In this document: positions 3,187 through 51,452 of the stretch, one piece after another
Layout: every line of letters begins with the position of its first letter
How positions within the stretch are numbered: the first letter of the stretch is position 1
DNA from: Escherichia coli O157 typing phage 14
DNA: 64,000 bases
Reading direction: 5' to 3' (one strand)
Sequence record: KP869112
Notes under the pieces: model-generated
The model's input: the letters and a program-made list of their open reading frames with translations, nothing else
What the model was told of the DNA's origin: nothing
Database searches by the model: none
Position numbers and translations under genes: made by a program

Positions 3187-3771
3187 TTAGAGGGTAGGTC
3201 GCTCCGGGAAGAAAATGTCAGGGGCTTTAGATGTATCTATTTCAAGAAGTTTTACCCTGTACATTTTCAAATCTCTGATGTTACGTTTCTGGTCATCAGT
3301 AAGATCATATTCAAGGTCAATCATGTCTTGATAGGCACCAATTCTAGCAGTAGCCCAAGCAAGTTCTGTCTCTATGACACCCTCTGCCTGTTGAACAAAG
3401 AATTCATTATCTGTGACAAATTCATCACCAACTAAACGCAAAGCGTCGTGGTGAAGCATAATGTTTTCTGGTACCTCTTCTTTTTTGGCGATAACCACAC
3501 GAAGACCTGGAGCAGGCCATAAGGCATCAGGTTCTTCTGTAGATGTCTTAAGAATTCCCTTCTCGTCAACAAGTAGGAAGATACAACCCGGATTTTCTTG
3601 TCGCAATGTTCGTGACTGCACATACCAATCGCCATCATCATTACGTAAAAAATACCCAGTGTATGCTGTGTAATCCTCAACCTCTTGAGGGGTCAGCTCC
3701 TTGGTTTCCTTGTTGGTGCGGTATTCGCCAGATCCCGGTTGGTAAAGTTTAAACTCTTGAAGTATTTTCAT
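3187..3771 (-). CDS. tail fibre assembly chaperone (Tfa family)
   Basis: C-terminus DLKMYRVKLLEIDTSKAPDIFFPERP matches the conserved Tfa C-terminal motif of lambda Tfa ([24 protein letters not shown], recalled from memory); sits immediately downstream of fibre gene 3786..4826. Confidence 0.75.
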   Translation of the reverse strand: MKILQEFKLYQPGSGEYRTNKETKELTPQEVEDYTAYTGYFLRNDDGDWYVQSRTLRQENPGCIFLLVDEKGILKTSTEEPDALWPAPGLRVVIAKKEEVPENIMLHHDALRLVGDEFVTDNEFFVQQAEGVIETELAWATARIGAYQDMIDLEYDLTDDQKRNIRDLKMYRVKLLEIDTSKAPDIFFPERPTL

Positions 3772-3785
3772 GCTAGTCCTCCGAT

Positions 3786-4826
3786 CTATGCATAATTAAC
3801 AGTGATCCATTGACCATTTACAAGTTTTTGTAAAGGTCCTGCCCAGTAGGTTGAACCACGCATCTCTTTTTTGTCACCGAAATGCCAGCCTGTGACAACG
3901 TAGCCGTTGCGGATTGGAGATTCAGAAACTCCGTCCACAAGTCTTGCACCGATTCTGATGTCTTGCACACCTGTCTGCGGGATAGTGATCGTTACATCAC
4001 CGTTACCGTTAGCCGTCACTCCATTCACGGAGCGCACCACATTTCTGTTACCGACAACACAGTGCTGGCTTCTTACAACCATACTGTCACAACTTGCACC
4101 ACCATTAACATATACTGACCCAGCCGTCAACTGACTAGCCACATTACAGTTGGTGAATGTTGCTGTATTGCTGATAGTAAGGTTATTGCACCTCATGTTA
4201 TCGACAACTTCAACATTGCCTACCACTTTCAACAGCGCACGATTAGCCGTGATCGCGTTAAGGTACATCAAAGTGAACTCTGGATTAATATCCGGCTGAA
4301 TTGGCTGGAATCTCCAACGAAACGCATCTACCGTAGATGTACCACCATCATCAAACGACCCAGCATTATCACTTAACCCAAAGTCGAGAGTTGTCTTATC
4401 CGGGCCAATAGTTGTCTCTATCCAAGCCTTATCTGTCTCGGCAGCTTTAAAGTTGATACGTTGCAAACCCAATGGGCCTGTCATTGTATCACCTGTAACT
4501 TTTACATACCTGGCGTCTGCCTCTTCCTTAGTAATAATCCCAAGGTTTCTACGGGCAACAGGAATGTTCAAAAGATCACTCAAGTTATTATCACGTACCA
4601 GATAACGGCCTTCTTGAGCGGGGATCTGCTCGTCAGCAATGTATTTTGCCCAAGTTCCGAGCATATTGAAAATATAGTTAAGTTCTTCACATGAGGGCTT
4701 TTGACCAAGATCCCAACCTTTTCTCCACAAATCCTCAATCGGGCGTAGCCTGTTCTGTCTGTGGGTGTTAGGCAGAACCTGATCCTCCTCTGCCCAAATC
4801 TCTAATGGAAAACTAGGTTTTGACAT
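3786..4826 (-). CDS. tail fibre / receptor-binding protein
   Basis: 346 aa, paralog of 1728..2771, followed by a Tfa chaperone gene. Confidence 0.6.
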   Translation of the reverse strand: MSKPSFPLEIWAEEDQVLPNTHRQNRLRPIEDLWRKGWDLGQKPSCEELNYIFNMLGTWAKYIADEQIPAQEGRYLVRDNNLSDLLNIPVARRNLGIITKEEADARYVKVTGDTMTGPLGLQRINFKAAETDKAWIETTIGPDKTTLDFGLSDNAGSFDDGGTSTVDAFRWRFQPIQPDINPEFTLMYLNAITANRALLKVVGNVEVVDNMRCNNLTISNTATFTNCNVASQLTAGSVYVNGGASCDSMVVRSQHCVVGNRNVVRSVNGVTANGNGDVTITIPQTGVQDIRIGARLVDGVSESPIRNGYVVTGWHFGDKKEMRGSTYWAGPLQKLVNGQWITVNYA

Positions 4827-4838
4827 TTTATCTCCTGA

Positions 4839-6911
4839 TTATGAGAAGTCTGGCGGGACAACATCCTCTACATACCCTTTCAGAGCAACCTGCCCCATAT
4901 GAAGCACGGTAGAATCTCTAGCGGTAACAGTGATGCTGTCAGACATTACTTGCGGGTATGCCCACACATACTGTTTTACCTCAGGGTATCTATACTCTAT
5001 AGTTGCCATGTTTCCGCAAATACATCTCCATAAAAATTCTTGGTAATTCCTAGTTGGGTCGTATCCATATACCGGAGCAAGCTCTTTACTAGGAACGAAC
5101 CCTGCAAGGTATTGTATTTCAGACGGTTGCCAACCTAACTTAACGATAGGTATGTTTACAGACTCTTTTGCCTTTTCAATACCTCCCTGCATCACCCAAT
5201 CGTAGCACTCGGTGCAGAAGAAATCAAGAGCACCTGCTTCTTTTTTATATTGGTCGGCAAGGTTCAGCTTTTGCGTAAGCTCGGTTTCCATAATAGTTGG
5301 GAAAAACAGTAAAGCTGTCATCTGAGCTGATGCAGCGTGTGCCTTTATTGCCTTTGAAATAGCCGCAATACGAGCGCCAAGCTTACCACGACAAAATGCT
5401 ACATACTTGTCGTAAACACCGCCAGTTTTAGGATCGTCAATAGTCCCAATATCTAATGCATACTCACCTGTCTCATCATAAAACGCCTGCTTTGTAGGGT
5501 AATCATAAATACAAGGTCTACGAGTATCGGTATTGTACCACCACCACGGTTCACCAACCTGCATAATCACTGGCAGGTTGTTTCTCATAGCGGCTGATGC
5601 AAAATTCTTAAATACTGCAGTAAGGAAATTCATACCCTCTTCAATGGTTGGAGACAGGAGGTAGCTACAGGGTGTATACCCTGTTTTAGCGTAGTTATCG
5701 TTCCAGTCTCTTTGGGTCCATTCCAACGGGCAGGCATCGCTGAAAAGCTCAAAACTTACAGATTGCATAACGTCGAAGTTATGTCGTTTGGCATTGTACA
5801 TAAAATCATCGTGCCATTTATAAGCTGCAGCGTTTAGCGCCCCTGTTCTGTTTATAGACCATTGGGTTCCTGACCATGTGTAGTCATAATAATGACTCAT
5901 ACCAACATAATGGTTTATGGTTCCGGTATAGCCCAGACGCTTGATATTGTTCAACACCCTTAAAGGAGATACGTTCCACATATCGTCATATGCGGTGCAG
6001 ATCCCAACGTCGTGCTCTTTAACCTGAATATTGTTAAGTTGCATCATTTTCCAGCCTGTGTCTGGCTGGAGCAGATCTAGGCGCAACTCACACTCTACAT
6101 TTTCCGTTCTCGGGTCTGTGCTATTACTTACCCAGTCTTTAGGCATAAGCGGTATTAAAATCCTTCTCACCTGTCGAGGATCAACACCCATCATGTTGTT
6201 GTTCTGATCCATCCCGACGCAGTCCTCGAAATCAATATGAATCTCTGCAACATTCTTATCCTCTGAGATGCTGACAGCATATTGAGCTAAAGGAACATAG
6301 ATGATTGTGCCATCAACAAGGTCTACAGTCATAATCATCTTTTCAGGGGTGGAGAAGTTGCTGGCATTGGTTATTGACATTCTGAACCAAAGCTTGGTGT
6401 TTCTCATCTCATAGTGATCATCAAACCCAATACCGAAATGGTCATACTTGTCAACTGTTTCCCAAATGCACCCAGCCATACCTCCATATGTTCTTGACAC
6501 TAAACGGTTAATACAACAGTTGTTATCTGCAACAATACAGGTACTTTCAGTCTGCTGAGTAGTTGTAACCCAATACCTTGGGTGAAACATTCTCTCCTCA
6601 ACAGTATCCCAAGATATCCTGTCAAGATTCTCATCTGAAACTATTGTACATTTCGCCCTTTGTGTTCCAATCATCACCCCTTGAGATTTTGATGAAAACT
6701 CCATAAAGAAGCTTCTTGGCAACCTGTTGGGTAATTTGTCAACAATTTCCACGGGGATCTCAATACTGGTTGCCCCAATTGGGATAGTTACATCGCCCTC
6801 AACATGATTATAATCCCTACCAGGAACGGCAGTATCCTGAACTGTTCGGTAATGAAACTGTGCAGCCATTGTAGAGTAATCACGGTAAGGTTTAAAAACA
6901 GCTGTTGCCAT
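4839..6911 (-). CDS. large baseplate/tail-associated protein, possible carbohydrate-active domain (unverified)
   Basis: 690 aa; embedded between baseplate and fibre genes; Trp/Tyr-rich central region (VIMQVGEPWWWYNTD) suggests a barrel-type enzymatic fold, but no family was recognised with confidence. Confidence 0.4.
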   Translation of the reverse strand: MATAVFKPYRDYSTMAAQFHYRTVQDTAVPGRDYNHVEGDVTIPIGATSIEIPVEIVDKLPNRLPRSFFMEFSSKSQGVMIGTQRAKCTIVSDENLDRISWDTVEERMFHPRYWVTTTQQTESTCIVADNNCCINRLVSRTYGGMAGCIWETVDKYDHFGIGFDDHYEMRNTKLWFRMSITNASNFSTPEKMIMTVDLVDGTIIYVPLAQYAVSISEDKNVAEIHIDFEDCVGMDQNNNMMGVDPRQVRRILIPLMPKDWVSNSTDPRTENVECELRLDLLQPDTGWKMMQLNNIQVKEHDVGICTAYDDMWNVSPLRVLNNIKRLGYTGTINHYVGMSHYYDYTWSGTQWSINRTGALNAAAYKWHDDFMYNAKRHNFDVMQSVSFELFSDACPLEWTQRDWNDNYAKTGYTPCSYLLSPTIEEGMNFLTAVFKNFASAAMRNNLPVIMQVGEPWWWYNTDTRRPCIYDYPTKQAFYDETGEYALDIGTIDDPKTGGVYDKYVAFCRGKLGARIAAISKAIKAHAASAQMTALLFFPTIMETELTQKLNLADQYKKEAGALDFFCTECYDWVMQGGIEKAKESVNIPIVKLGWQPSEIQYLAGFVPSKELAPVYGYDPTRNYQEFLWRCICGNMATIEYRYPEVKQYVWAYPQVMSDSITVTARDSTVLHMGQVALKGYVEDVVPPDFS

Positions 6912-9207: not shown

Positions 9208-12200
9208 TTAGTCGTGAGACTCGTTCCAAGGTCCTTGGAAGCTTGAGTTAGAACGGCTTACCACAACAGTAGGACAGGATATTGCGACCCCTGTTACAGA
9301 AGACGTTGACCATGGTGTGTAGATTTCAACAACAATATCTATGGTTTGTTCACTAAGACCTGTTATCCCTACCGCACACATGCCGTTGTTGTCGTTTCCG
9401 TACTTCTTACCTGCAAGGATTTGATGTCCGGCTATCCAAACGTTGAGCTGGGAGCTGGCAAGAGCACCATTCAGTTTAAAGAAGAATGTTACGTTCTTAC
9501 CCTGACCTGAAACGTTATCTACGTATCTCCACCTCCAACGGCAAACCCTTTGCTGGGAGTTATATACTGGAGCACAATCCCCGTAAGTCCTGTGTGCAAC
9601 AATTGCACCTTCGAACTGGTTAGCACGGATAACAGAAGCTTCTACACGACCACGGAAGGTACCTCCGGTTGCATCTATGGTGCCCCTAAAGCTACCATTA
9701 TTGGCATAAACATCCCCACGGAAGGTACCACTAGTGGCGTTAACTGCCCCTGTGAAGTTACCAGAACTAGCGTTGATGTTGCCTTTCACCCACACATCCA
9801 TAAATTGGGCGTGCCCGTTCTTGTTAATATACCAACCGTATTTATGGTACCCGTTGCCATCGTAGTTGTTTGACGAGATTTCTTGTGCGATCTTGGCAGA
9901 GGAGATCGTGCCATTCTCTATAAAAGCGTCTTTCAAGAACGCTTGGTTGTTCTTGATTGCGAAAGCAAGGGTTGCTGTTCCATTTCCTGGGTTGTATACC
10001 GCAAAATTGTTTGCACTAACCATGAAGTAGGATTGAACTTGGCCTCCAGACCCTTCCATCCCCAACTGAATACCTGCAACATATTTATTCCCTGCGGAGT
10101 CTACCTGTATTTTTGTGCCCCATTGAGCATTTACTTTACCCTCTAAGTCGGTTACAGCCTTAGATGTTGTAGCTACTGCAGCCCTGATCTCAGACACATC
10201 CCCAACATCATCCATGATCTCCTGCTTAGCAACAGCAAGTTCTTGACGAATAGCTGACGCTGTGCCGTTGATAAGGTCCACAGTGGCTTGGTTGGTGCTC
10301 AAGATGCTTGCGTCAAGTTCTGTTCTCTGAGTATTGATCTTACCATCTAGAGTTTTATCTCCGGCTAAATACCCGCTCTCAACTCCCTCTATCTGCTCTA
10401 CCAGTTCACCTTTGGCGGCAACCAATTTCTCATCTAAAGCCTCTGTCTTTTTGTTCAGAAGATCAGTAGTTGCTTTATTGGTTGTCTCAATCAGAGATGC
10501 CAATCTTCCACTTTCAGTGTTCAGATCGTTGGTGAACTTGTTCTGTGCAGCAACAAGTTTCCTATCCAGCGCTGTGATATTGCCATTGACATCCTCAAAC
10601 TTCTGAGTTGTCTCTGTAACTACCGCACCTATTCTGTCTCCAAGTTGCTGGAATGCCTCATCTACCCTACCATCCATGTATTTATTAAGCTCTGTGACAC
10701 GATTTTCAACCTCTTCAATAGAGGAATCCAAAGTGCTCATCAACTCTTTATAAGTTTCTGTCTTTTTGAATTCAGCATCTATCTGAGGCATCAAATCCTC
10801 GATAGAGGTGTAGCAGTGTGCAGCGCATTCTACAAACTGAGAGCTACCAAAAGCGTTTGTGGTTCGAATATACCAATAATAAACCTTATCGTTCTGCAGG
10901 CCTTCAGATGTCCAAGTTGAACCAACACCCATACGGGTGGCGTTTGAAGTAACGGTTGCATCACTGGTGTCTGGCAACCTTGTCATACCAGATGTCCAAA
11001 AGTCATACTGGGTGCTAACACTTGCTAAATCCCTACTATGCGGAATCAAGGTGATAGCAAAGTATCCTTGCTTAACCTCTACAGAAACCGGAGCTTCAGG
11101 TGCCTGAATGTTAAACTCACAGTACGCTTCTGGAGATACACCACCTTTATAGGATGTTGCAACCACGGTTGCTGTGTATGACCCTTTGGTCAAGCCTTCT
11201 ACTCGGACAAACTGCTCAACTGTCTGTGCTGTCCAAACAATCTCTCCGTTCTTTCTTACCTGCACAATATTTTGAGCGTAAGTCCCAACGTTGTCCCAAG
11301 CCAAAACACCGTGAGTTACTTCCCCAGCTTGGAGAACGGAATATCTGAAGTTTTGCGGTTGAGCTACACCAGATGGAGATATTGGAATATCTACATCGCC
11401 AGAATCCGGAAGTTGTCCTGTGGCATCATTCCACTCTTTAGCATCTTGACGAAGTTTTACCTTGACACCACCCTTTTTGGTAAACTCCCATTCAAGAACT
11501 CTCATTTCTTGGCCCACTATACCAATACTTGGGAGGTCCATTGTAACGTAACGACCAGGTTTAAATTTGAAACCTCGCATATTGCAGGTGACTTCAATAA
11601 TCCTGCCAGCTCTGGCACGTCTTAGGAAGATTGCAGAAACACGCTGAGCTTGATAAGGACTGGTAACAAAGCGATAGTCTATATCGATTATCTTTCTTTC
11701 TCCATCCTTCTCTATCCACTCTGGGACAAACACTGATGGAAAATCTGTTTCAGAATACCCTTTGGTAGGACTGGTGAATCTGCCAGTTATTGTGTTGGAT
11801 CTTTTGTCAAATGAGGCTTCCGGATAGATCTTGACCTCACCACAGACACAATCCTCACTCAGTGTCATTGTTGCCGGGCCATAGTATGCACCAACCAGCA
11901 AACCATACTTACCAGCTACATAGCTGAGATCTGCACCACAAGCTTTCAGCATTTCTGCCATAATGCTTGCTGGGGCCTCATCCATGTCAAACTCACCGTT
12001 AATGGTGTAACGTCGCTCACTGGTTCCGTCAGCGTTTTTTACCGCCTCGTCGCATATGTTGGCAGCCTCCTTGAAGGACTCCCAGTTAATGGTTTCGTCA
12101 GGACATTTAAGGTACGTTCTTAAATAGTCTAGGATCACCAAGGCCGCGTTATTGGTATACACCTCTTTACTGATACGAGGATCATAGCATTTTTTACCAA

Positions 12201-44860: not shown

Positions 44861-44967
44861 TACTTAGGATCTAGTATATTCTACATAAGTTAAGTATATG
44901 TACTTTAGTACCATAAGTACTAGATCTTTTATTTTTTATTATTTAGTTATTTTAGTTATATTCTTTA

Positions 44968-45094
44968 TGTGTCCGTATCACGGACAGTTAGTGTCCGTAT
45001 TACGGGCAGATGTGTCCGCGTGACGGACAGTAGTGTCCGTATTACGGGCAGATGTGTCCGCGTGACGGACAGTGGTGTCCGTATCACGGACAGT
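44968..45094. repeat. array of six 17-bp palindromic sites at 21-22 bp spacing
   Basis: TGTCCGTATCACGGACA (44970, 45076), TGTCCGTATTACGGGCA (44992, 45034) and TGTCCGCGTGACGGACA (45013, 45055), arranged A-B-C-B-C-A; flanked by an AT-rich tract with GTACT and TTTAGTTAT repeats (44870-44968). Confidence 0.85.
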
Positions 45095-45167: not shown

Positions 45168-45518
45168 CTAACCAGTTGTTGACATTCGAATAACTTCTTC
45201 TGGTGGCAAAACTTTGGAAAATGTGCATCTTTTACCTCTCCCCTGTGTGGATGTTTCAACCACTCCTGCACATTCTAAAGTTTTAACGCACGCTGCTGCT
45301 TTTGTTTTCTTTATCCCAACATCTGCTGCAATTTTCCTTGTGCTGGGTGTGAAGCGTGAATTTCCTCCAAGTTTATACCAGTTGTGCAGGTAGCAGTATA
45401 CGATCTTGTCATACAAGTCAAGAACAACAACCTCCCCAGTTGTGTCATTCAAAACTTTTGACATAGACAGTATTTCAAGGGGGACTTTAAGATATAGCAG
45501 CTTATCCCCATCTTTCAT
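45168..45518 (-). CDS. putative helix-turn-helix DNA-binding protein
   Basis: 116 aa; segment STRKIAADVGIKKTKAAACVKTLECAGVV has HTH character; gene ends about 75 bp from the palindrome array. Confidence 0.45.
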   Translation of the reverse strand: MKDGDKLLYLKVPLEILSMSKVLNDTTGEVVVLDLYDKIVYCYLHNWYKLGGNSRFTPSTRKIAADVGIKKTKAAACVKTLECAGVVETSTQGRGKRCTFSKVLPPEEVIRMSTTG

Positions 45519-45565
45519 ATCTCCTGATTCTCCTTGTGTGGCAATTTTCTTTAAAATAGCAGGGA

Positions 45566-46120
45566 TTACTCCCCGCTGTCAATAGCAAAACTCATTGCAA
45601 TACGGTATGCCTCTTCTAATGGTAAGAGTCTCCCCCACACATCCCAACCGACATCAAGCTGCCTGCCAAACAACTGTTGTGTGGTTCCGTGAGCATGACC
45701 GAACAGTTGGACTGATCCGTGAGGCTTTCTGTTCCACTTTGCAAATTGGTAATGGCTCATACAGATCAAATTCTTGTTGTGGCGAAGCTCGTAATAATCT
45801 ACAACCTCGTGATAGAACTCTTTCATAATTCTGACAGTCGTCCTTGTGTCATGGTTGCCACGAACAAGAATAATATGTCCGTTCAACATATTTAGAATAT
45901 CTGGAAGTAATTTGTTGATATTCTTATCATTAGTGCACGCAATATCTCCCAAGTGGAACACAGTGTCTGCAGGTGACACAACAGAGTTCCACTCGGCGAT
46001 GATTCCCGCATTCATACTGTCAAGATTGTGATCATACTGAGATCTGTGTTTTTGACATGAATCAAACTCCATGACCCGCTGGTGGAGAAAGTGTGTGTCG
46101 CTTGTTACAAAGTATTTCAT
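45566..46120 (-). CDS. calcineurin-like metallophosphoesterase
   Basis: Start reassigned to ATG 46118-46120 (MKYFVTSDTHF, RBS GAGGAA); motifs SDTHF, LGDI, RGNHD and FGHAHG are the metallophosphoesterase signature. Confidence 0.6.
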   Translation of the reverse strand: MKYFVTSDTHFLHQRVMEFDSCQKHRSQYDHNLDSMNAGIIAEWNSVVSPADTVFHLGDIACTNDKNINKLLPDILNMLNGHIILVRGNHDTRTTVRIMKEFYHEVVDYYELRHNKNLICMSHYQFAKWNRKPHGSVQLFGHAHGTTQQLFGRQLDVGWDVWGRLLPLEEAYRIAMSFAIDSGE

Positions 46121-46127
46121 ACATTCC

Positions 46128-46538
46128 TCATTTAAGTTTAATGCAGTTTTTAAGCTGGCGTTCCATACGATCCACAACCTTGTCTGGAACATCATGAATG
46201 CTTTTATTACCGTGGCGGTTTTCAACCACGATCACGGTATAACTATACCCATGACTGATTGCCATGTCAACATATTCCTGCACATGTTTTTCTTTTGTAA
46301 ACGTATTACTTACCACGATACGGTCGTATCCCATACGCATCATATCTTCTACGTTATCTTTGCACCATTTTGCTGCGAGTGTTACTTTACTTGCATCCCA
46401 GTTGTAATTGCCGTCATCGTCATACCAGAACATGTCGTTCTCAAAATGTGGATACAGACCTTCTAAAGATAGCGCATTTGCCAGTGTTGATTTGCCAGAC
46501 CCTGGCAGACCACGCACGATATATAGCATTTTAGACAT
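46128..46538 (-). CDS. P-loop kinase (polynucleotide kinase-like)
   Basis: Start reassigned to ATG 46536-46538 (RBS GGAGGA); Walker A GLPGSGKST; about 137 aa. Confidence 0.55.
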   Translation of the reverse strand: MSKMLYIVRGLPGSGKSTLANALSLEGLYPHFENDMFWYDDDGNYNWDASKVTLAAKWCKDNVEDMMRMGYDRIVVSNTFTKEKHVQEYVDMAISHGYSYTVIVVENRHGNKSIHDVPDKVVDRMERQLKNCIKLK

Positions 46539-46659
46539 AGCAATCCTCCGTTTTAATTTTAATGATAGTATACCTAACTGTTTTGTTAATTTCAAGTGTT
46601 GACACTAGGTTATTTGTGTGGCAGGATAGACTGACAAAATGACAAATGAGGAACGTATG

Positions 46660-47574
46660 ATGAAGTATTTTAATGCAGATGACCTAGTAGACAAAGGTCT
46701 TGTAACCAGTCGGTATTATCCAGATCTTGGATTAAAGATCTATAAATATGCCAGAAAAGTATTCTACAACAATCTGTGGCATTTGTCTCCGCGTTTACTG
46801 GAGTGCCGAGGTATTGTTGTTGGCAATGAGGGGAATGTTGTGGCATGGCCTTTCACAAAAGTATTCAACTTAGGAGAAAACTCCACCAACCTACCGGACA
46901 GTAAACTTGTTACTGCGGTAGAGAAAAAGAACGGATTCCTCGGTGTGGTATCATCTCATAAAGGTGAACTATTGTTCTCAACAACCGGGTCTCTTGATTC
47001 TCCATATTGTAACCTTGCAAAGGAAACCATCCAAGAGCAATGTGGTAATTTAGATCTTATCAAGAAGGTTATGGGCAATGAAAACATGACATTCATGTTT
47101 GAAATTTGTCACCCTTCAGATCCGCATATTGTTCAAGAAGACCATGGCGCATATTTGATAGGTTGCAGATATAATGATTCTGGAATAATGCTACCAGAAG
47201 CAGCTTTAGATGGGATTGCCAAATACCTTGGTGCAAAACGTCCTCACACTGTGCGTGAAATCCCGTTCAGCTATGCAAAAGAATTAGCTGCAGAAACAAG
47301 GGGCGAAGGGTATATGATCCGTAAGCCTTACTACCCTTATGACCTGCAGCTGAAGATCAAGTCTCCATACTATTTGGCACGGAAGGCCGTAATGAGAGGT
47401 AAAGCATGGAAGATTTGGGATGACGATATTTTTAAACGTGTTGACGAGGAGTTTTACGGTATGGTAAAATTTATTCGTAGCAACTATACAGAAGATGTGT
47501 GGAATTGCTTATTAGAGCAGGAGCGTCGCGAGATACTGGACTGCTATTTCCACAACGAGGACTATATGCAATGA
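46660..47574 (+). CDS. RNA ligase (nucleotidyltransferase superfamily)
   Basis: Motif I KKNGF (KxxG lysine) and motif IV GEGYMIRK; start taken as the ATG at 46660 (RBS GAGGAA 6 nt upstream), whereas the track starts at 46639. Confidence 0.55.
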   Translation: MKYFNADDLVDKGLVTSRYYPDLGLKIYKYARKVFYNNLWHLSPRLLECRGIVVGNEGNVVAWPFTKVFNLGENSTNLPDSKLVTAVEKKNGFLGVVSSHKGELLFSTTGSLDSPYCNLAKETIQEQCGNLDLIKKVMGNENMTFMFEICHPSDPHIVQEDHGAYLIGCRYNDSGIMLPEAALDGIAKYLGAKRPHTVREIPFSYAKELAAETRGEGYMIRKPYYPYDLQLKIKSPYYLARKAVMRGKAWKIWDDDIFKRVDEEFYGMVKFIRSNYTEDVWNCLLEQERREILDCYFHNEDYMQ

Positions 47575-47921
47575 AGAAGTGGATTGTGTGGCTTGATGAT
47601 TTTAGAGATCCGTCAGATTATGGACTCCCAGACGCTCTGTGGCTAAAGAATTCTTCTGAATTTATGGATTTTCTTAATGATAAGAGAAAGCTCTACAGAC
47701 GCGTATCTGAATGGTATTTTGACAATGATCTAGGTGAAGTTCTTGAAGGGTACGACTGCTTCTCTGCGCTAGAGGAGAAACTTGTATTCGGAAAGCCACC
47801 ACTTATTGACAACGTGATTATTTTCGTGCATACTTCTAATCCATCGGCAGCTCGTAAATTTATGCTTGCTGCTGACTCATTCAAGAAGTTTGGAATAGAG
47901 ATCAAACAAAACATCTACTAA
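47571..47921 (+). CDS. hypothetical protein
   Basis: ATG overlaps the RNA ligase stop (ATGA); 116 aa; no recognisable motif. Confidence 0.4.
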   Translation: MKKWIVWLDDFRDPSDYGLPDALWLKNSSEFMDFLNDKRKLYRRVSEWYFDNDLGEVLEGYDCFSALEEKLVFGKPPLIDNVIIFVHTSNPSAARKFMLAADSFKKFGIEIKQNIY

Positions 47922-47929
47922 GGACATTT

Positions 47930-48691
47930 ATGCGACGACTTATTGTTATTTCTGGTGCTGGTTTGAGCGCAGAATCTGGTATTCCCACCTTCCGATCTGG
48001 TAGCACTGCAATGTGGGAGAATTTCAGCATCGATGAGGTGTGCAACATCCACACCTTTGCCAAGAACTACTATAAGGTGCATGACTTTTACAATGCACGT
48101 CGTGTAGCGCTGGGCAGTGTTGATCCTAACCTTGCACATCTTCGGATCGCTGAGTGGTATTCCCGCTGGTCTGGTCGTGTGATCAACCTTACCACCAATG
48201 TAGATGATTTGCTGGAGCGTGCTGGTGTAAAACATGAAGATATTTTACATGTCCACGGGTATTTGCCTGAAATCACCTACGAAGATGCTGAAGGTAATGA
48301 TGTAATTAAAAATATCGGATACACGGAGGTAGATACAGGCAAGTATACCTGGGTTAAGCCCAATGTAGTGTTCTTCGGCGAGGTTGCTCCTAAGTATACA
48401 GACATGTATGACCTGTTGACATCTCTCACCAGCAATGATATGGTGATCCTAGTGGGTTGTTCTAACACAGTTATTAATTTTAACTGGGAATTGTTTCCTG
48501 CTACTTGTAAAGGAACAAAACTGCTGATTGTAAACAAGTATGATTCGCAGAGTGCAGATGGAAGTGGCATTTCACGTAGCGACCTTTATCAATATGAGGA
48601 TCGCGGGATCCCTGTATGGTTTAACGGTGCTGTTGACGCTTTCTCTGATAAAGCATTTATTGAAACTGTAGAAAACTTTATGGAACTTTAA
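47930..48691 (+). CDS. Sir2-family (sirtuin-like) NAD-dependent enzyme lacking the zinc ribbon
   Basis: Motifs GAGLSAESGIPTFRS, TTNVDDLLERAG, catalytic HVHG, VVFFGE and VGCSNTV match the sirtuin fold; no Cys pairs between the catalytic His and VVFFGE. Confidence 0.7.
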   Translation: MRRLIVISGAGLSAESGIPTFRSGSTAMWENFSIDEVCNIHTFAKNYYKVHDFYNARRVALGSVDPNLAHLRIAEWYSRWSGRVINLTTNVDDLLERAGVKHEDILHVHGYLPEITYEDAEGNDVIKNIGYTEVDTGKYTWVKPNVVFFGEVAPKYTDMYDLLTSLTSNDMVILVGCSNTVINFNWELFPATCKGTKLLIVNKYDSQSADGSGISRSDLYQYEDRGIPVWFNGAVDAFSDKAFIETVENFMEL

Positions 48692-48704
48692 AAGGAGACC
48701 TTTA

Positions 48705-49418
48705 ATGCTGAATACTAAACTGATCGACAACCTGGAAAAACTGTCTCAGCCTGAAAACTACCTTTGGTCTGCCAATTGGGTGGAAAACTGGAACCGTGTG
48801 GCAGCTAAAGTGAAAAAATCATACACACCATTCGAATTACAGCTTAGCTTCATTGAGGAAGAGTTCAATGAGGTTTTGGAAGAGCTGGAGAAAGGTGATG
48901 GTGGAGATCACCTGCTAAAAGAGGCCTGCGATCTTCACGTTGTCACAAGTTATGCCGCTTATCTTGTTAATGATAATCACGAAAAGTGGTCAAACCTGTT
49001 TGATAATCCGCGAGGTCTTAAGTTCAAGATCGGCGAGTTCTATGATACACTGATCGCTGCGAAAAACACCTCTAAGCAAAGAGCGTCTGCTTACCGCTTA
49101 GCAGAGTTGTCAACAGCTTTGCTGTTCCAGCTTCGCGGCGATGTGTGCGGGATGATGCGTAAGGTTCTCAAATCGAATGACAGCAAGTTTGCACGGGTCA
49201 ACCATCTACGGTATTCACACGGTGCCAGTGCAGATATGCCTGCTGAACAACTAATCGAGTTGGAGATTAAAGATCTTGAACGACGCTTTGATGGTCGATA
49301 TGAAGGTTTTGTTGCCAAGGAAGAATTCTACAACGGTAATAAAGTTATCATATTCCTTGACAGTAAAGGTAAGATCATGAAGCCTTCGAGCTTCAAGGAT
49401 GTAACAGAGTATATTTAA
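48705..49418 (+). CDS. MazG-like nucleotide pyrophosphohydrolase (putative)
   Basis: EExxE-type motif IEEEFNEVLEELEKGD followed by KEACDLHV, reminiscent of MazG; RBS AAGGAG. Confidence 0.4.
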   Translation: MLNTKLIDNLEKLSQPENYLWSANWVENWNRVAAKVKKSYTPFELQLSFIEEEFNEVLEELEKGDGGDHLLKEACDLHVVTSYAAYLVNDNHEKWSNLFDNPRGLKFKIGEFYDTLIAAKNTSKQRASAYRLAELSTALLFQLRGDVCGMMRKVLKSNDSKFARVNHLRYSHGASADMPAEQLIELEIKDLERRFDGRYEGFVAKEEFYNGNKVIIFLDSKGKIMKPSSFKDVTEYI

Positions 49419-49424
49419 CAACAT

Positions 49425-49453
49425 AGCCGGGATTACCCGGCTTTACTTATTAT
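49425..49453 (+). terminator. rho-independent terminator
   Basis: Stem AGCCGGG/CCCGGCT with loop AUUA followed by UUACUUAUUAU, 7 nt after the MazG-like stop. Confidence 0.55.
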
Positions 49454-49480
49454 GGAAAGTATGCAGTGAGGTAGTTAGTT

Positions 49481-49789
49481 ATGTACAAGCATTCCAGAGA
49501 TCTTGAAAAAGATGCTGTGTTTGGCGATCAGATGAAGGAGCTGATCAAACTTATAGGTAGAATGGAAGATAAGTTTGACACTAAAATCTACATCGATAGC
49601 AAGATCTTCAACCACAAAATATGGACAAATGTGTGTGTTGGGCTACATGGTGATAAAGATATTGTAAATTTGGTTGTAATAAAGTTCATAGTGTGGCAGA
49701 ATAGGACTATACGTTATTCCGATCCACACTTACTTGTTTATCCTATAAAAGACCTACTACAGAAGGAGGACTGCAATGCCGTTATTTAA
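49481..49789 (+). CDS. hypothetical protein
   Basis: 102 aa; RBS GAGGT. Confidence 0.35.
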   Translation: MYKHSRDLEKDAVFGDQMKELIKLIGRMEDKFDTKIYIDSKIFNHKIWTNVCVGLHGDKDIVNLVVIKFIVWQNRTIRYSDPHLLVYPIKDLLQKEDCNAVI

Positions 49790-50045
49790 TCTTGCTAAAC
49801 CTGTAGAAGCCCACCAGTTTGACGGAAGCTCTTCATCAGTAGCTGATCTGCAACGGTGGATTGATACAGGTGTGTTTACATCGTCACCTGTTCGGACCAG
49901 AGATATTCGTCGCATGTGTGAGCTTGTCGAGCCTTTTGGTAACCTTGTCTTGTACCAGGGAGATTGGCTAGTTGACTTTATGGGAGACTGGTTGGTAATG
50001 AGTAAAGAAGAGATGTTTAAAATTTTTAAGGAAGAGGCCGAGTAA
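49776..50045 (+). CDS. hypothetical protein
   Basis: 89 aa; RBS GGAGGA; stop overlaps the DNA ligase start. Confidence 0.35.
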   Translation: MPLFNLAKPVEAHQFDGSSSSVADLQRWIDTGVFTSSPVRTRDIRRMCELVEPFGNLVLYQGDWLVDFMGDWLVMSKEEMFKIFKEEAE

Positions 50046-51328
50046 TGCATCAAATCAAAACAACACTGTACGCACTGAACAAAGATGGCAGCTACCAACA
50101 GTGGAAAGTATTCACGGATGGTGATAAGGTTATCGTAGAGTTTGGCAAGCTTGATGGTAAACTGCAATACAAAGAGACGATCTGCACACCTAAGAACGTT
50201 GGTCGCGCCAATGAAACTACAGCTGAGCAACAGGCCGAGCTGGAAGCGATCAGTAAGTGGGAAAAACAGGTCCGACTCGGGTACGTGGAGAGTATGGAAG
50301 ATTGTGAGCAAGGTGTTGATCTTTTACCCATGTTGGTGCATGACTACCTGAAGCGTGGCAAGGCACTTAAATTACCTTGCTGGATCTTGCGTAAGTTAGA
50401 TGGCCTTCGTCTACTTGTTGTTTTCCAGAATGGTGAGCCTAAATTTATTTCCCGTGGTAATAAATCCTACCCTATTCAAGGAAAGCTTCTGGAGCAACTT
50501 CGCTCTTTCCACCTAACCACCGGGATTAAACAGCTCGACGGAGAGCTCTATATTCATGGTCTGCCTCTGCAGAAAATAGTGTCTCTTGCTAAACGGTGGC
50601 GCACACAGGAAGAAATTCAGGCCGAGATCGATAAAGACTACGAGGCAGATAAAAAACGCCGTCAGGCTGCGATTAAGGCAGGTTTAGCAACATACAAAAA
50701 CTTCAACAAGATGGATATTCCTGTTGATGTTGAGCCTGTTCGTGATGATTTGCGTTACGGAGGGTACTGCAGCTACGACTTAGAGTATCATATTTTCGAT
50801 ATTCCTAGCGATAAGGTGTGGTGGGATCCTGAAACAGAGTCTGGACGCTGTAAGGATCTTATGGAGGCAAATGGTGCTATTGCTTCTTTGATGCTTGACC
50901 ATATTAAGGTTGTTGATGCAGAGCTTGCATACACAGTTGATCGGTGCGAAGAGTCTGTTGGTATATTTATGTCTGAGGGATATGAAGGTACCATTATGCG
51001 TAACTTCTGTGGTAAATATGAGTATGGTCAGCGAACATCTGAAGCATTGAAATGGAAAAAGTTCAACGACGCAGAGGTGAAAGTTATTGACGTTGAGAAA
51101 GATAAGAATGATGAAGGTGTTCTTATCTGTGTTGACAAGGAAGGTGTTGTTGTTAAAATGAAGATGAAAGGCACGCACGAGGAGCGTAGCTATGACAGGA
51201 TGCAGGAAATGATCGGCAAGTTTGTCACCTTCAAATATCAAGCAAGGACAGAAGACAACAACTACCAATTCCCTGTCGGTATCTGCGTCCGAAATGTTAA
51301 CCCAGACACTTGGGAGGTTCTGGAATGA
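50045..51328 (+). CDS. ATP-dependent DNA ligase
   Basis: Motif I KLDGLR (KxDGxR), motif III DGELYIHG, motif IV EGYEGTIMR, motif V WKKFNDAEVKVID; 427 aa. Confidence 0.6.
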   Translation: MHQIKTTLYALNKDGSYQQWKVFTDGDKVIVEFGKLDGKLQYKETICTPKNVGRANETTAEQQAELEAISKWEKQVRLGYVESMEDCEQGVDLLPMLVHDYLKRGKALKLPCWILRKLDGLRLLVVFQNGEPKFISRGNKSYPIQGKLLEQLRSFHLTTGIKQLDGELYIHGLPLQKIVSLAKRWRTQEEIQAEIDKDYEADKKRRQAAIKAGLATYKNFNKMDIPVDVEPVRDDLRYGGYCSYDLEYHIFDIPSDKVWWDPETESGRCKDLMEANGAIASLMLDHIKVVDAELAYTVDRCEESVGIFMSEGYEGTIMRNFCGKYEYGQRTSEALKWKKFNDAEVKVIDVEKDKNDEGVLICVDKEGVVVKMKMKGTHEERSYDRMQEMIGKFVTFKYQARTEDNNYQFPVGICVRNVNPDTWEVLE

Positions 51329-51355
51329 TGTAGGATGGTTTAGTAGGTAACGGTA

Positions 51356-51384
51356 GCCAATTGAATGATGGTTTTTCAATTGGC
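51356..51384 (+). other. stable stem-loop downstream of DNA ligase (10-bp perfect stem)
   Basis: GCCAATTGAA / TTCAATTGGC with 9-nt loop; not followed by a U-tract. Confidence 0.4.
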
Positions 51385-51452
51385 ACCTACATAACCACAC
51401 TATGCAGTGTTGTTGATCGGGTTAGTTATGAGTAAACTGGAGAGTATGAAAA

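Follow-up and report, generated by a model that had tools for sequence, protein, structure and literature searches.

Escherichia coli O157 typing phage 14 (sequence record KP869112) encodes, within the stretch of 64,000 nucleotides analysed here (the window), a 253-residue protein of the Sir2 family, or sirtuin. The gene is best explained as coding for a catalytically competent enzyme dependent on nicotinamide adenine dinucleotide (NAD+), and the features of its product suggest a branch of the class III (CobB/SIRT5) deacylases that is peculiar to phages, in which the zinc ribbon has lost its metal ligands without the module itself having been deleted. Since the gene lies amongst genes for RNA ligation and RNA-end processing, the reading that we favour, tentatively, is that the enzyme has retained lysine-deacylase chemistry and serves the RNA-repair module of the phage. 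Annotations and publications already exist for the gene, its family and its neighbourhood; our analysis is set against that earlier work below.

A Sir2-family protein with conserved catalytic motifs

An earlier note on this DNA, drawn up from the sequence alone, had identified an open reading frame at 47930-48691 (+) and had listed a set of core sirtuin motifs within it. Both were borne out: the translation contains GAGLSAESGIPTFR, TTNVDDLLERAG, HVHG, VVFFGE and VGCSNTV, and is matched by the Pfam SIR2 model (PF02146), whose gathering score is 24, at 98.2 bits (E 6.9e-28) over positions 1-178 of the 180 in the profile, and by PHROG 2162, 'Sir2 (NAD-dependent deacetylase)', at E 2e-108, scores that are far past chance. 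When the gene was compared with its orthologues in two related phages, the ratio of non-synonymous to synonymous substitution rates (dN/dS) was 0.02 and 0.10; the gene is therefore real and under purifying selection.

In an alignment of 27 diverse members of the sirtuin's clade, residues G9, A10, G11, S16, G17, F21, R22, N90, D92, H109, G110, F149, E151, G176, S178 and N202 were found to be invariant, and the sole departure from the catalytic and NAD-binding motifs of sirtuins was the Gln of the TQNID motif, which is replaced by Thr89. The earlier note had held that substitution of the catalytic histidine in relatives would speak for a dead enzyme; this residue, H109, is present in 27 of 27 clade members. 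The protein is a single domain of 253 residues, with neither a sensor nor an oligomerisation domain. A Pfam scan returned SIR2 only, with no homology to Tpt1/KptA (PF01885, ART fold), and membership of that family is therefore ruled out, a result that leaves a functional analogy to it unaffected.

The nearest relatives of known structure are CobB and SIRT5

The best sequence matches in the PDB were E. coli CobB (2.4e-21) and SIRT5 (about 1e-20), followed by Sir2Tm and SIRT2 (1e-13 to 1e-12), and the best NCBIfam model was 'NAD-dependent protein deacylase'. A structural model of the phage sirtuin was generated using AlphaFold2 from an alignment of 27 sequences (mean predicted local distance difference test score, pLDDT, 90; predicted template modelling score, pTM, 0.89). 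The top 50 Foldseek matches of this model were all CobB, Sir2Af, SIRT5 or SIRT2 deacylases.

Residues that line the acyl-lysine site were compared by reference to the acyl-selectivity positions named in the titles of engineered CobB structures: A76, Y92, I131 and V187. In a phmmer alignment these correspond to C38, Y54, V91 and V146 of the phage protein, with CobB R95 and H147 corresponding to R57 and H109, and all six of the phage residues are invariant in the 27 clade members. The phage segment FY54NAR57R aligns with FYNARR in CobB and with FY102HYR105R in SIRT5, and C38 aligns with an Ala that occupies the A86 position of SIRT5. In SIRT5, according to work attributed to Du and colleagues in 2011, Y102 and R105 are reportedly the pair that binds the carboxylates of succinyl and malonyl groups. 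Retention of Tyr54 and Arg57, together with a small side chain at position 38, thus suggests that the phage enzyme may accept acidic acyl groups (succinyl, malonyl) besides acetyl. The YxxR pair, the small residue at the A86 position and CobB/SIRT5 as nearest neighbours are together those expected of class III. The NAD-binding and catalytic motifs, and the length and position of the ribbon, are likewise shared with CobB and SIRT5; the phage sirtuin differs from these enzymes in lacking the zinc cysteines, in being much more acidic, in its TTNVD and GCSN motifs and in being encoded by a phage within an RNA-repair operon, and its identity to them is ~26-28%.

The clade is acidic throughout (median isoelectric point, pI, 5.1; net charge -12), including the ribbon wall of the substrate cleft (-3 to -5), and the sirtuin is the most acidic protein of its module bar an 89-residue hypothetical protein (pI 4.9). 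Such acidity would fit a basic protein substrate better than RNA, an argument that is weak because the tRNA-binding ligase of the same module, Rnl1, is also non-basic (pI 6.2).

The sirtuins of bacterial defence systems (ThsA, DSR1/2, Sir2-HerA, SPARSA, KomC and Avs5) share with the phage protein their membership of the Sir2 superfamily and the lack of a Cys4 zinc site, having other elements in place of the zinc ribbon. The earlier note had likened the phage protein to the NAD-degrading Sir2 domains of these systems and had called for a structural comparison of the two possible models, defence-type Sir2 and CobB. The comparison went against the likeness: among sirtuins, defence members were the most distant structural matches, scoring far lower than CobB and SIRT5, which are nearest to the phage protein by both sequence and fold. 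PADLOC gave no defence-Sir2 match, there is no sensor or partner domain, and the phage protein keeps the ribbon scaffold and what appears to be a peptide-type pocket; it therefore does not fall with the defence NADases. Nor does it resemble SirTM, to which its identity is 13%: SirTM is not its closest structure, and no macrodomain partner, fused or in the operon, was found among the Pfam-scanned flanking genes.

Loss of the zinc ligands from a retained ribbon

In canonical sirtuins, cysteines of the zinc site are considered essential to stability. In the phage sirtuin the segment between the HG and FGE motifs is 43 residues long and has no cysteine (0-1 across the close clade), and the canonical Cys4 site (CxxC...CxxC) is thus missing. 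This segment is little shorter than its zinc-binding counterpart, with a median of 44 residues in 157 Cys-less relatives versus 47 in 78 relatives that carry CxxC...CxxC, a motif seen in relatives at about E 1e-40 and in more distant ones. A central (I/V)G(Y) motif, IGY in the phage protein, is common to both groups; the segment aligns residue for residue with the zinc ribbon of CobB in phmmer; and in the AlphaFold2 model it forms three strands (110-118, 124-128 and 142-146) at a pLDDT of ~94-97. By alignment and model, then, the ribbon has lost its ligands and has not been deleted as a module. The earlier note, which had described the module as absent, was right about the four cysteines, which are gone clade-wide, and wrong about the ribbon, which is present.

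Alongside the loss of cysteines, two motifs close to the NAD ribose pocket are altered: TQNID has become TTNVD, and GTSG has become GCSN. At the position of the TQNID Gln, Thr is found in 148 of 157 Cys-less sequences and Gln in 68 of 79 zinc forms; as these counts carry no phylogenetic correction, the Thr/GCSN/Cys-less set therefore defines a clade, and co-adaptation is not proven by it. Relatives in jumbo phages, at 41-42% identity, retain Cys4, TQNID or TQNCD, and GTS. The loss of the ligands from a retained ribbon is a small structural curiosity.

Organisation of the repair genes in the window

The sirtuin gene is flanked by the genes listed in Table 1. Rightward from Rnl1, junctions are tight: the Rnl1 stop codon and the cREC ATG overlap as ATGA at 47571, the sirtuin gene starts 8 nt past the cREC stop with AGGA upstream, and the MazG-like gene starts 13 nt past the sirtuin stop behind an AAGGAG ribosome-binding site. 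Rnl1, cREC, Sir2 and the MazG-like gene are best explained as one tightly coupled unit that is co-transcribed and translationally coupled. The hairpin that follows is likely the terminator of this unit, in a consensus scan for promoters and terminators whose counts were no higher than in shuffles.

Table 1. Features of the window referred to in the text
Feature	Coordinates	Strand	Evidence and remarks
tRNA cluster: Pro, Met/Ile, Thr, Lys(UUU) with long variable insertion, Ser, Tyr, Arg	41776..42588	-	~3 kb left of the module's leftmost gene, ~5 kb from the sirtuin gene
Calcineurin-like metallophosphoesterase, candidate 3'-end healing enzyme	45566..46120	-	Pfam PF00149, PF12850; PHROG 547
P-loop kinase (AAA_33, polynucleotide-kinase-like), divergent from Rnl1	46128..46538	-	Pfam PF13671 E 1.7e-10; PHROG 2071, PHROG 505 'polynucleotide kinase'
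T4 Rnl1-type RNA (tRNA) ligase, 311 aa, first gene of rightward unit	46639..47574	+	Pfam PF09511 E 9e-15; PHROG 562 E 9e-66
cREC ('cyclic-phosphate processing receiver') domain protein, 116 aa	47571..47921	+	Pfam PF20274, 52 bits against a cut-off of 27
Sir2-family sirtuin, 253 aa	47930..48691	+	ATG-to-TAA open reading frame; class III (CobB/SIRT5)-like; zinc cysteines absent; TTNVD for TQNID, GCSN for GTSG
MazG-like nucleotide pyrophosphohydrolase, 237 aa	48705..49418	+	PHROG 671 E 5e-22; EExxE...ExxD motifs read by eye
GC-rich hairpin directly 3' of the MazG-like stop codon	49425..49442	.	Consensus scan; likely terminator
ATP-dependent DNA ligase	50045..51328	+	0.6 kb beyond the MazG-like gene, to its right; synteny with the module is kept in rV5-, Mydo- and phi92-like phages

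The RNA-repair and MazG-like neighbours that the earlier note had pointed to are thus recovered by profile searches, together with the kinase and the metallophosphoesterase. In alignment, the cREC protein has its receiver-like acidic residues (DD, FDNDLG), a TSNP motif and the conserved Lys intact. The MazG-like protein had no match in Pfam and no sequence match in the PDB, and the kinase is annotated as 'polynucleotide kinase' in phage EmilHeitz. No NAD-salvage gene is annotated within 28 kb to the right of the module (in phage FFH2) or 20 kb to its left (in phage MiataMamis), and a paper on NARP3 deals with bacterial Sir2-HerA and not with sirtuins of phages.

The sirtuin and its neighbourhood across phage lineages

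The window comes from an rV5-like Vequintavirus: across region 45500-51400, 122 phage records match at 90-98% identity, most of them from Escherichia Vequintavirus (rV5-like myoviruses of ~137 kb). In these records the sirtuin gene is labelled 'putative Sir2-like protein', 'sirtuin domain NAD-dependent deacetylase' or 'cobB'; the annotation 'Sir2-like' is already present in more than 100 GenBank phages with rV5-like genomes. Three records, MG065658, MG065661 and MG065682, come closest, at 98.4% identity over 5.9 kb; they are unannotated and named 'Campylobacter phage C7/C9/A112b', host labels that look doubtful because the lineage is otherwise one of E. coli Vequintavirus. In all, 967 sirtuin homologues were found at E < 1e-5. 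Those at 45-60% identity are encoded by T5-like, Mydovirus-like (~145 kb) and phi92-like (~150 kb) phages, and carriers of the family include model coliphages: T5, where the homologue is T5.102 (annotated Sir2), rV5-like phages and members of the BASEL collection.

The neighbourhood was described by Iyer, Burroughs, Anantharaman & Aravind in 2022 (Viruses 14:1977; PMC9503650, section 3.7.3) as a type 2 system 'prototyped by Escherichia phage V5', with Proteus phage Mydo as a further prototype. In medium-sized proteobacterial phages it consists of a sirtuin, a T4-like tRNA ligase, cREC, a nucleotide kinase, a MazG-family pyrophosphatase and, sometimes, a calcineurin-like phosphoesterase. All six of these genes lie within 45566-49418 of the window, which represents the same phage lineage and gene set, with no essential difference between the two. 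Iyer et al. proposed that the sirtuin acts in a KptA-like manner, removing 2'-phosphates, and zinc is not discussed in their paper for the RNA-repair sirtuin clade. Our analysis adds to theirs the loss of the zinc ligands from a retained ribbon, the linked TTNVD and GCSN changes, the conserved CobB acyl pocket, a break of linkage in phi92-like phages and a cREC gene in T5 that lies 13 kb from Sir2.

To determine how far the association extends, we surveyed the context of 55 viral loci encoding sirtuin relatives. Sir2 was found beside Rnl1, cREC and the kinase in rV5- and Mydo-like phages, and phages of ~145 kb keep the synteny of phosphoesterase, Rnl1, cREC, kinase, Sir2, DNA ligase and MazG-like genes at 45-64% protein identity. 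In phi92-like phages, cREC, the phosphoesterase, (Rnl1 and the kinase), the DNA ligase and the MazG-like gene form a block, and Sir2 lies ~33 kb away on the same contigs; in two of the four phi92-like contigs the block lacks Rnl1 and the kinase.

T5-like phages have none of the genes that accompany Sir2 in the ~145-kb phages within 6 kb of their own Sir2. In T5 itself, the annotation places Sir2 in a single operon with a phosphatase, HAD_SAK_2 ('Swiss-army-knife RNA repair'), and T5.084 (a 'hypothetical protein', 42745-43062) proved to be a cREC protein (PF20274, 56.9 bits against a cut-off of 27), which adjoins the tRNA and stable-RNA region of T5 and whose homologues are common in T5-like phages. 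A tblastn search of positions 1-76 kb of T5, at E up to 1, detected no Rnl1 and no kinase of the polynucleotide kinase (PNK) type. The product of T5.105, called 'Sir2' in RefSeq, is really a HAD_SAK_2 phosphatase.

A zinc-bearing jumbo-phage sirtuin is encoded two genes from Rnl1: on a jumbo-phage contig of 607 kb (3582-6708), Rnl1 and a zinc-containing sirtuin are found in a row with, between them, a protein of the arginase family (PF00491, E 9e-76). At another locus, on a jumbo-phage contig of 358 kb (9629-10983), some 3 kb separate a distant cREC gene from a Nudix gene and a gene of Thg1 type (the family of 3'-5' tRNA repair polymerases), another cREC context with a flavour of tRNA repair.

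This survey revealed that the association of the sirtuin with RNA-end enzymes recurs in all four lineages checked, above all at the level of genomes, as each encodes cREC somewhere. Residence of the sirtuin in an operon with the RNA-repair genes is not obligatory, and an RNA ligase of the phage cannot be detected in every case. KptA/Tpt1 in the place of the sirtuin was not found in the phi92-like modules, at one distant cREC locus or in three remote cREC contexts; Sir2 did not turn up either, and what was seen instead were metallophosphoesterase, Nudix, Thg1, TnpB and NrdD genes.

Discussion

How might a CobB/SIRT5-like sirtuin operate within a phage RNA-repair module? As a deacylase, it would admit an acyl-lysine to its conserved hydrophobic tunnel, where the carbonyl oxygen of the acyl group would attack C1' of the nicotinamide ribose, with release of nicotinamide; His109 would then activate a ribose hydroxyl, leading to free lysine and O-acyl-ADP-ribose as products. 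We infer a role in the repair of tRNA or other RNA breaks because the gene appears to be co-transcribed and translationally coupled with those for Rnl1, cREC and the MazG-like protein. In such a role it might de-acylate catalytic lysines, such as the adenylyl-lysines of ligase KxxG motifs or the P-loop lysine of the kinase, or might act on host translation factors, and cREC, the phosphoesterase or the MazG-like enzyme could dispose of the ADP-ribose by-product.

Protein and context do not point in quite the same direction, the former suggesting a lysine deacylase of class III whose tunnel and acyl pocket are intact and the latter the processing of RNA ends or of ADP-ribose derivatives, and several points weigh against deacylation in the service of repair. 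The candidate target lysines just named are pure inference. A plain protein deacylase would by itself leave unexplained the recurrence of the gene beside RNA-end enzymes in unrelated phages, as well as the presence of cREC in every carrier lineage checked, T5.084 included. The coordinated changes beside the NAD ribose pocket (TTNVD, GCSN and the loss of cysteines), which are derived, could mark a change of substrate. All seven CobB-type NCBIfam models match the sirtuin far under their cut-offs (for NF040867, NF001753 and related equivalog models, 104.6 bits against 320 and 123.3 against 243), which suggests a CobB-like protein and not a CobB equivalog. Finally, the literature searched yielded no experimental work on phage-encoded sirtuins, the biochemistry of any clade member included.

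The main rival, which we consider doubtful, is that the sirtuin is an RNA 2'-phosphotransferase, a non-homologous analogue of Tpt1/KptA, as put forward in print for exactly this neighbourhood (PMC9503650). Metal-independent anticodon nucleases leave tRNA ends with a 2',3'-cyclic phosphate and a 5'-OH; in this scheme opening of the cyclic phosphate by cREC or the phosphoesterase would yield a 2'-phosphate, the 5' end would receive its phosphate from the kinase and the break would be sealed by Rnl1. The zinc-free clade could then be the first sirtuins to act on RNA, transferring internal or terminal tRNA 2'-phosphates to NAD+ while cREC clears the resulting ADP-ribose cyclic phosphate, an idea that is likewise already published (PMC9503650) and that we regard as improbable. 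Our survey independently reproduces the context on which it draws: the synteny kept in ~145-kb phages at 45-64% identity, the operon that T5 Sir2 shares with an 'RNA repair' HAD_SAK_2 phosphatase, the jumbo-phage relative two genes from Rnl1, cREC in all four carrier lineages, and tRNA genes, amongst them tRNA-Lys(UUU), ~3 kb from the leftmost gene of the module. The functions of cREC and HAD_SAK are, however, themselves contextual predictions, and the linkage can be broken, as shown by phi92-like Sir2 genes ~33 kb from the block and by T5, which has Sir2 yet no Rnl1 or PNK-type kinase detectable in the part searched.

The chemistry may be argued both ways. Sirtuins and Tpt1 follow a common logic, in which an oxygen nucleophile attacks C1'' of NAD and the ribose 2''-OH resolves the adduct, and the phage protein would resemble Tpt1/KptA, by hypothesis, in consuming NAD+ amid an RNA ligase and end-healing enzymes. 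The two differ in that their folds are unrelated and their sequences without similarity, the Arg-His-Arg-Arg tetrad being a feature of Tpt1. Action on a nucleic-acid phosphate is without known precedent among sirtuins; the lysine-type tunnel and CobB acyl pocket are invariant, and a 2'-phosphate on the RNA backbone would lack a long arm that could extend to the buried C1''. The strong acidity of the protein and its ribbon points in the same direction, weakly, given that Rnl1 is not basic either. Moreover, a kinase, a phosphoesterase and Rnl1 constitute a full heal-and-seal set, as in the T4 and Clostridium thermocellum Pnkp systems, and a 2'-phosphate step would be unneeded; nor was KptA found in the sirtuin's place in the phi92-like modules and cREC loci inspected. 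The lack of a sirtuin precedent, the conserved lysine-shaped tunnel, the complete heal-and-seal set and, weakly, the acidity are the reasons for which we prefer a deacylase to a Tpt1-like enzyme.

Two further readings take the protein away from RNA repair. The sirtuin might be an ADP-ribosyltransferase whose target is a protein or the end of a nucleic acid, or it might, in partnership with cREC, make or consume an NAD-derived small molecule, in either case as counter-defence against immune signalling by NAD or ADP-ribose. Here the genome-wide co-occurrence of Sir2 and cREC, which holds even where no RNA ligase was detected (T5, 1-76 kb), would be accounted for, as would the derived changes around the nicotinamide-ribose pocket and the Nudix, Thg1 and metallophosphoesterase genes that adjoin distant cREC genes. 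We nevertheless judge it unlikely, as the macrodomain partner that is the hallmark of SirTM is missing from the Pfam-scanned flanking genes, identity to SirTM is so low, the deacylase pocket is conserved down to its YxxR pair and a signalling molecule as substrate is without direct support. That the sirtuin is an unregulated or triggered NADase, depleting host NAD+ as defence sirtuins do, is a reading that goes back to the analogy drawn in the earlier note, and all that speaks for it is that the protein belongs to the Sir2 superfamily and, like defence sirtuins, lacks the zinc cysteines. With PADLOC blank, defence sirtuins the farthest structural matches of their kind, the ribbon scaffold retained and a single domain without sensor or oligomerisation elements, this is very improbable; NAD depletion would, in addition, harm T5, a carrier that uses an NAD-dependent DNA ligase. 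Among the functions that the earlier note had listed, expressly as speculation, deacylation and 2'-phosphate removal therefore stand as the best readings, with NAD depletion the least supported.

If the deacylase reading is true, phages bring a protein deacylase of their own into an RNA-repair operon; if the sirtuin removes 2'-phosphates, a sirtuin has been recruited to nucleic-acid chemistry. The 2022 paper had already given both the neighbourhood and a proposed function, and the gene is otherwise an ordinary, catalogued one. As a large family under strong purifying selection, with carriers amongst the model coliphages, it nonetheless makes a well-defined experimental target.

Other features to the left of the module

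Within the tRNA cluster, the tRNA-Lys(UUU) gene at 42023-42119 (-) is 97-99 nt long, with the anticodon loop CUUUUUAAU and an insertion of ~26 nt in its variable region. It scores 35.5 bits in Rfam and is misread by ARAGORN as 'tRNA-???' with a four-base anticodon; it is annotated as tRNA-Lys in EmilHeitz and left unannotated in MiataMamis. The gene lies ~3.5 kb from the leftmost gene of the repair module and ~4.5 kb from the Rnl1 gene, and tRNA-Lys(UUU) is the classical target of the anticodon nuclease PrrC. An Rfam match to 'Plastid-ycf2 5'UTR' at 41866-41938 (+), on the strand opposite to the tRNA-Met/Ile gene, reaches 41 bits, below the gathering score of 65.7, and is almost certainly an artefact of tRNA-like complementarity. 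Further to the right, positions 44967-45093 hold six tandem 21-bp units, each with a GTCCG-N(5-7)-CGGAC palindrome (TRF scores 140-203). They adjoin the gene at 45168-45518 (-), which is called 'transcriptional regulator' or 'replication initiation protein' in relatives, and the array looks like a set of operators or iterons.

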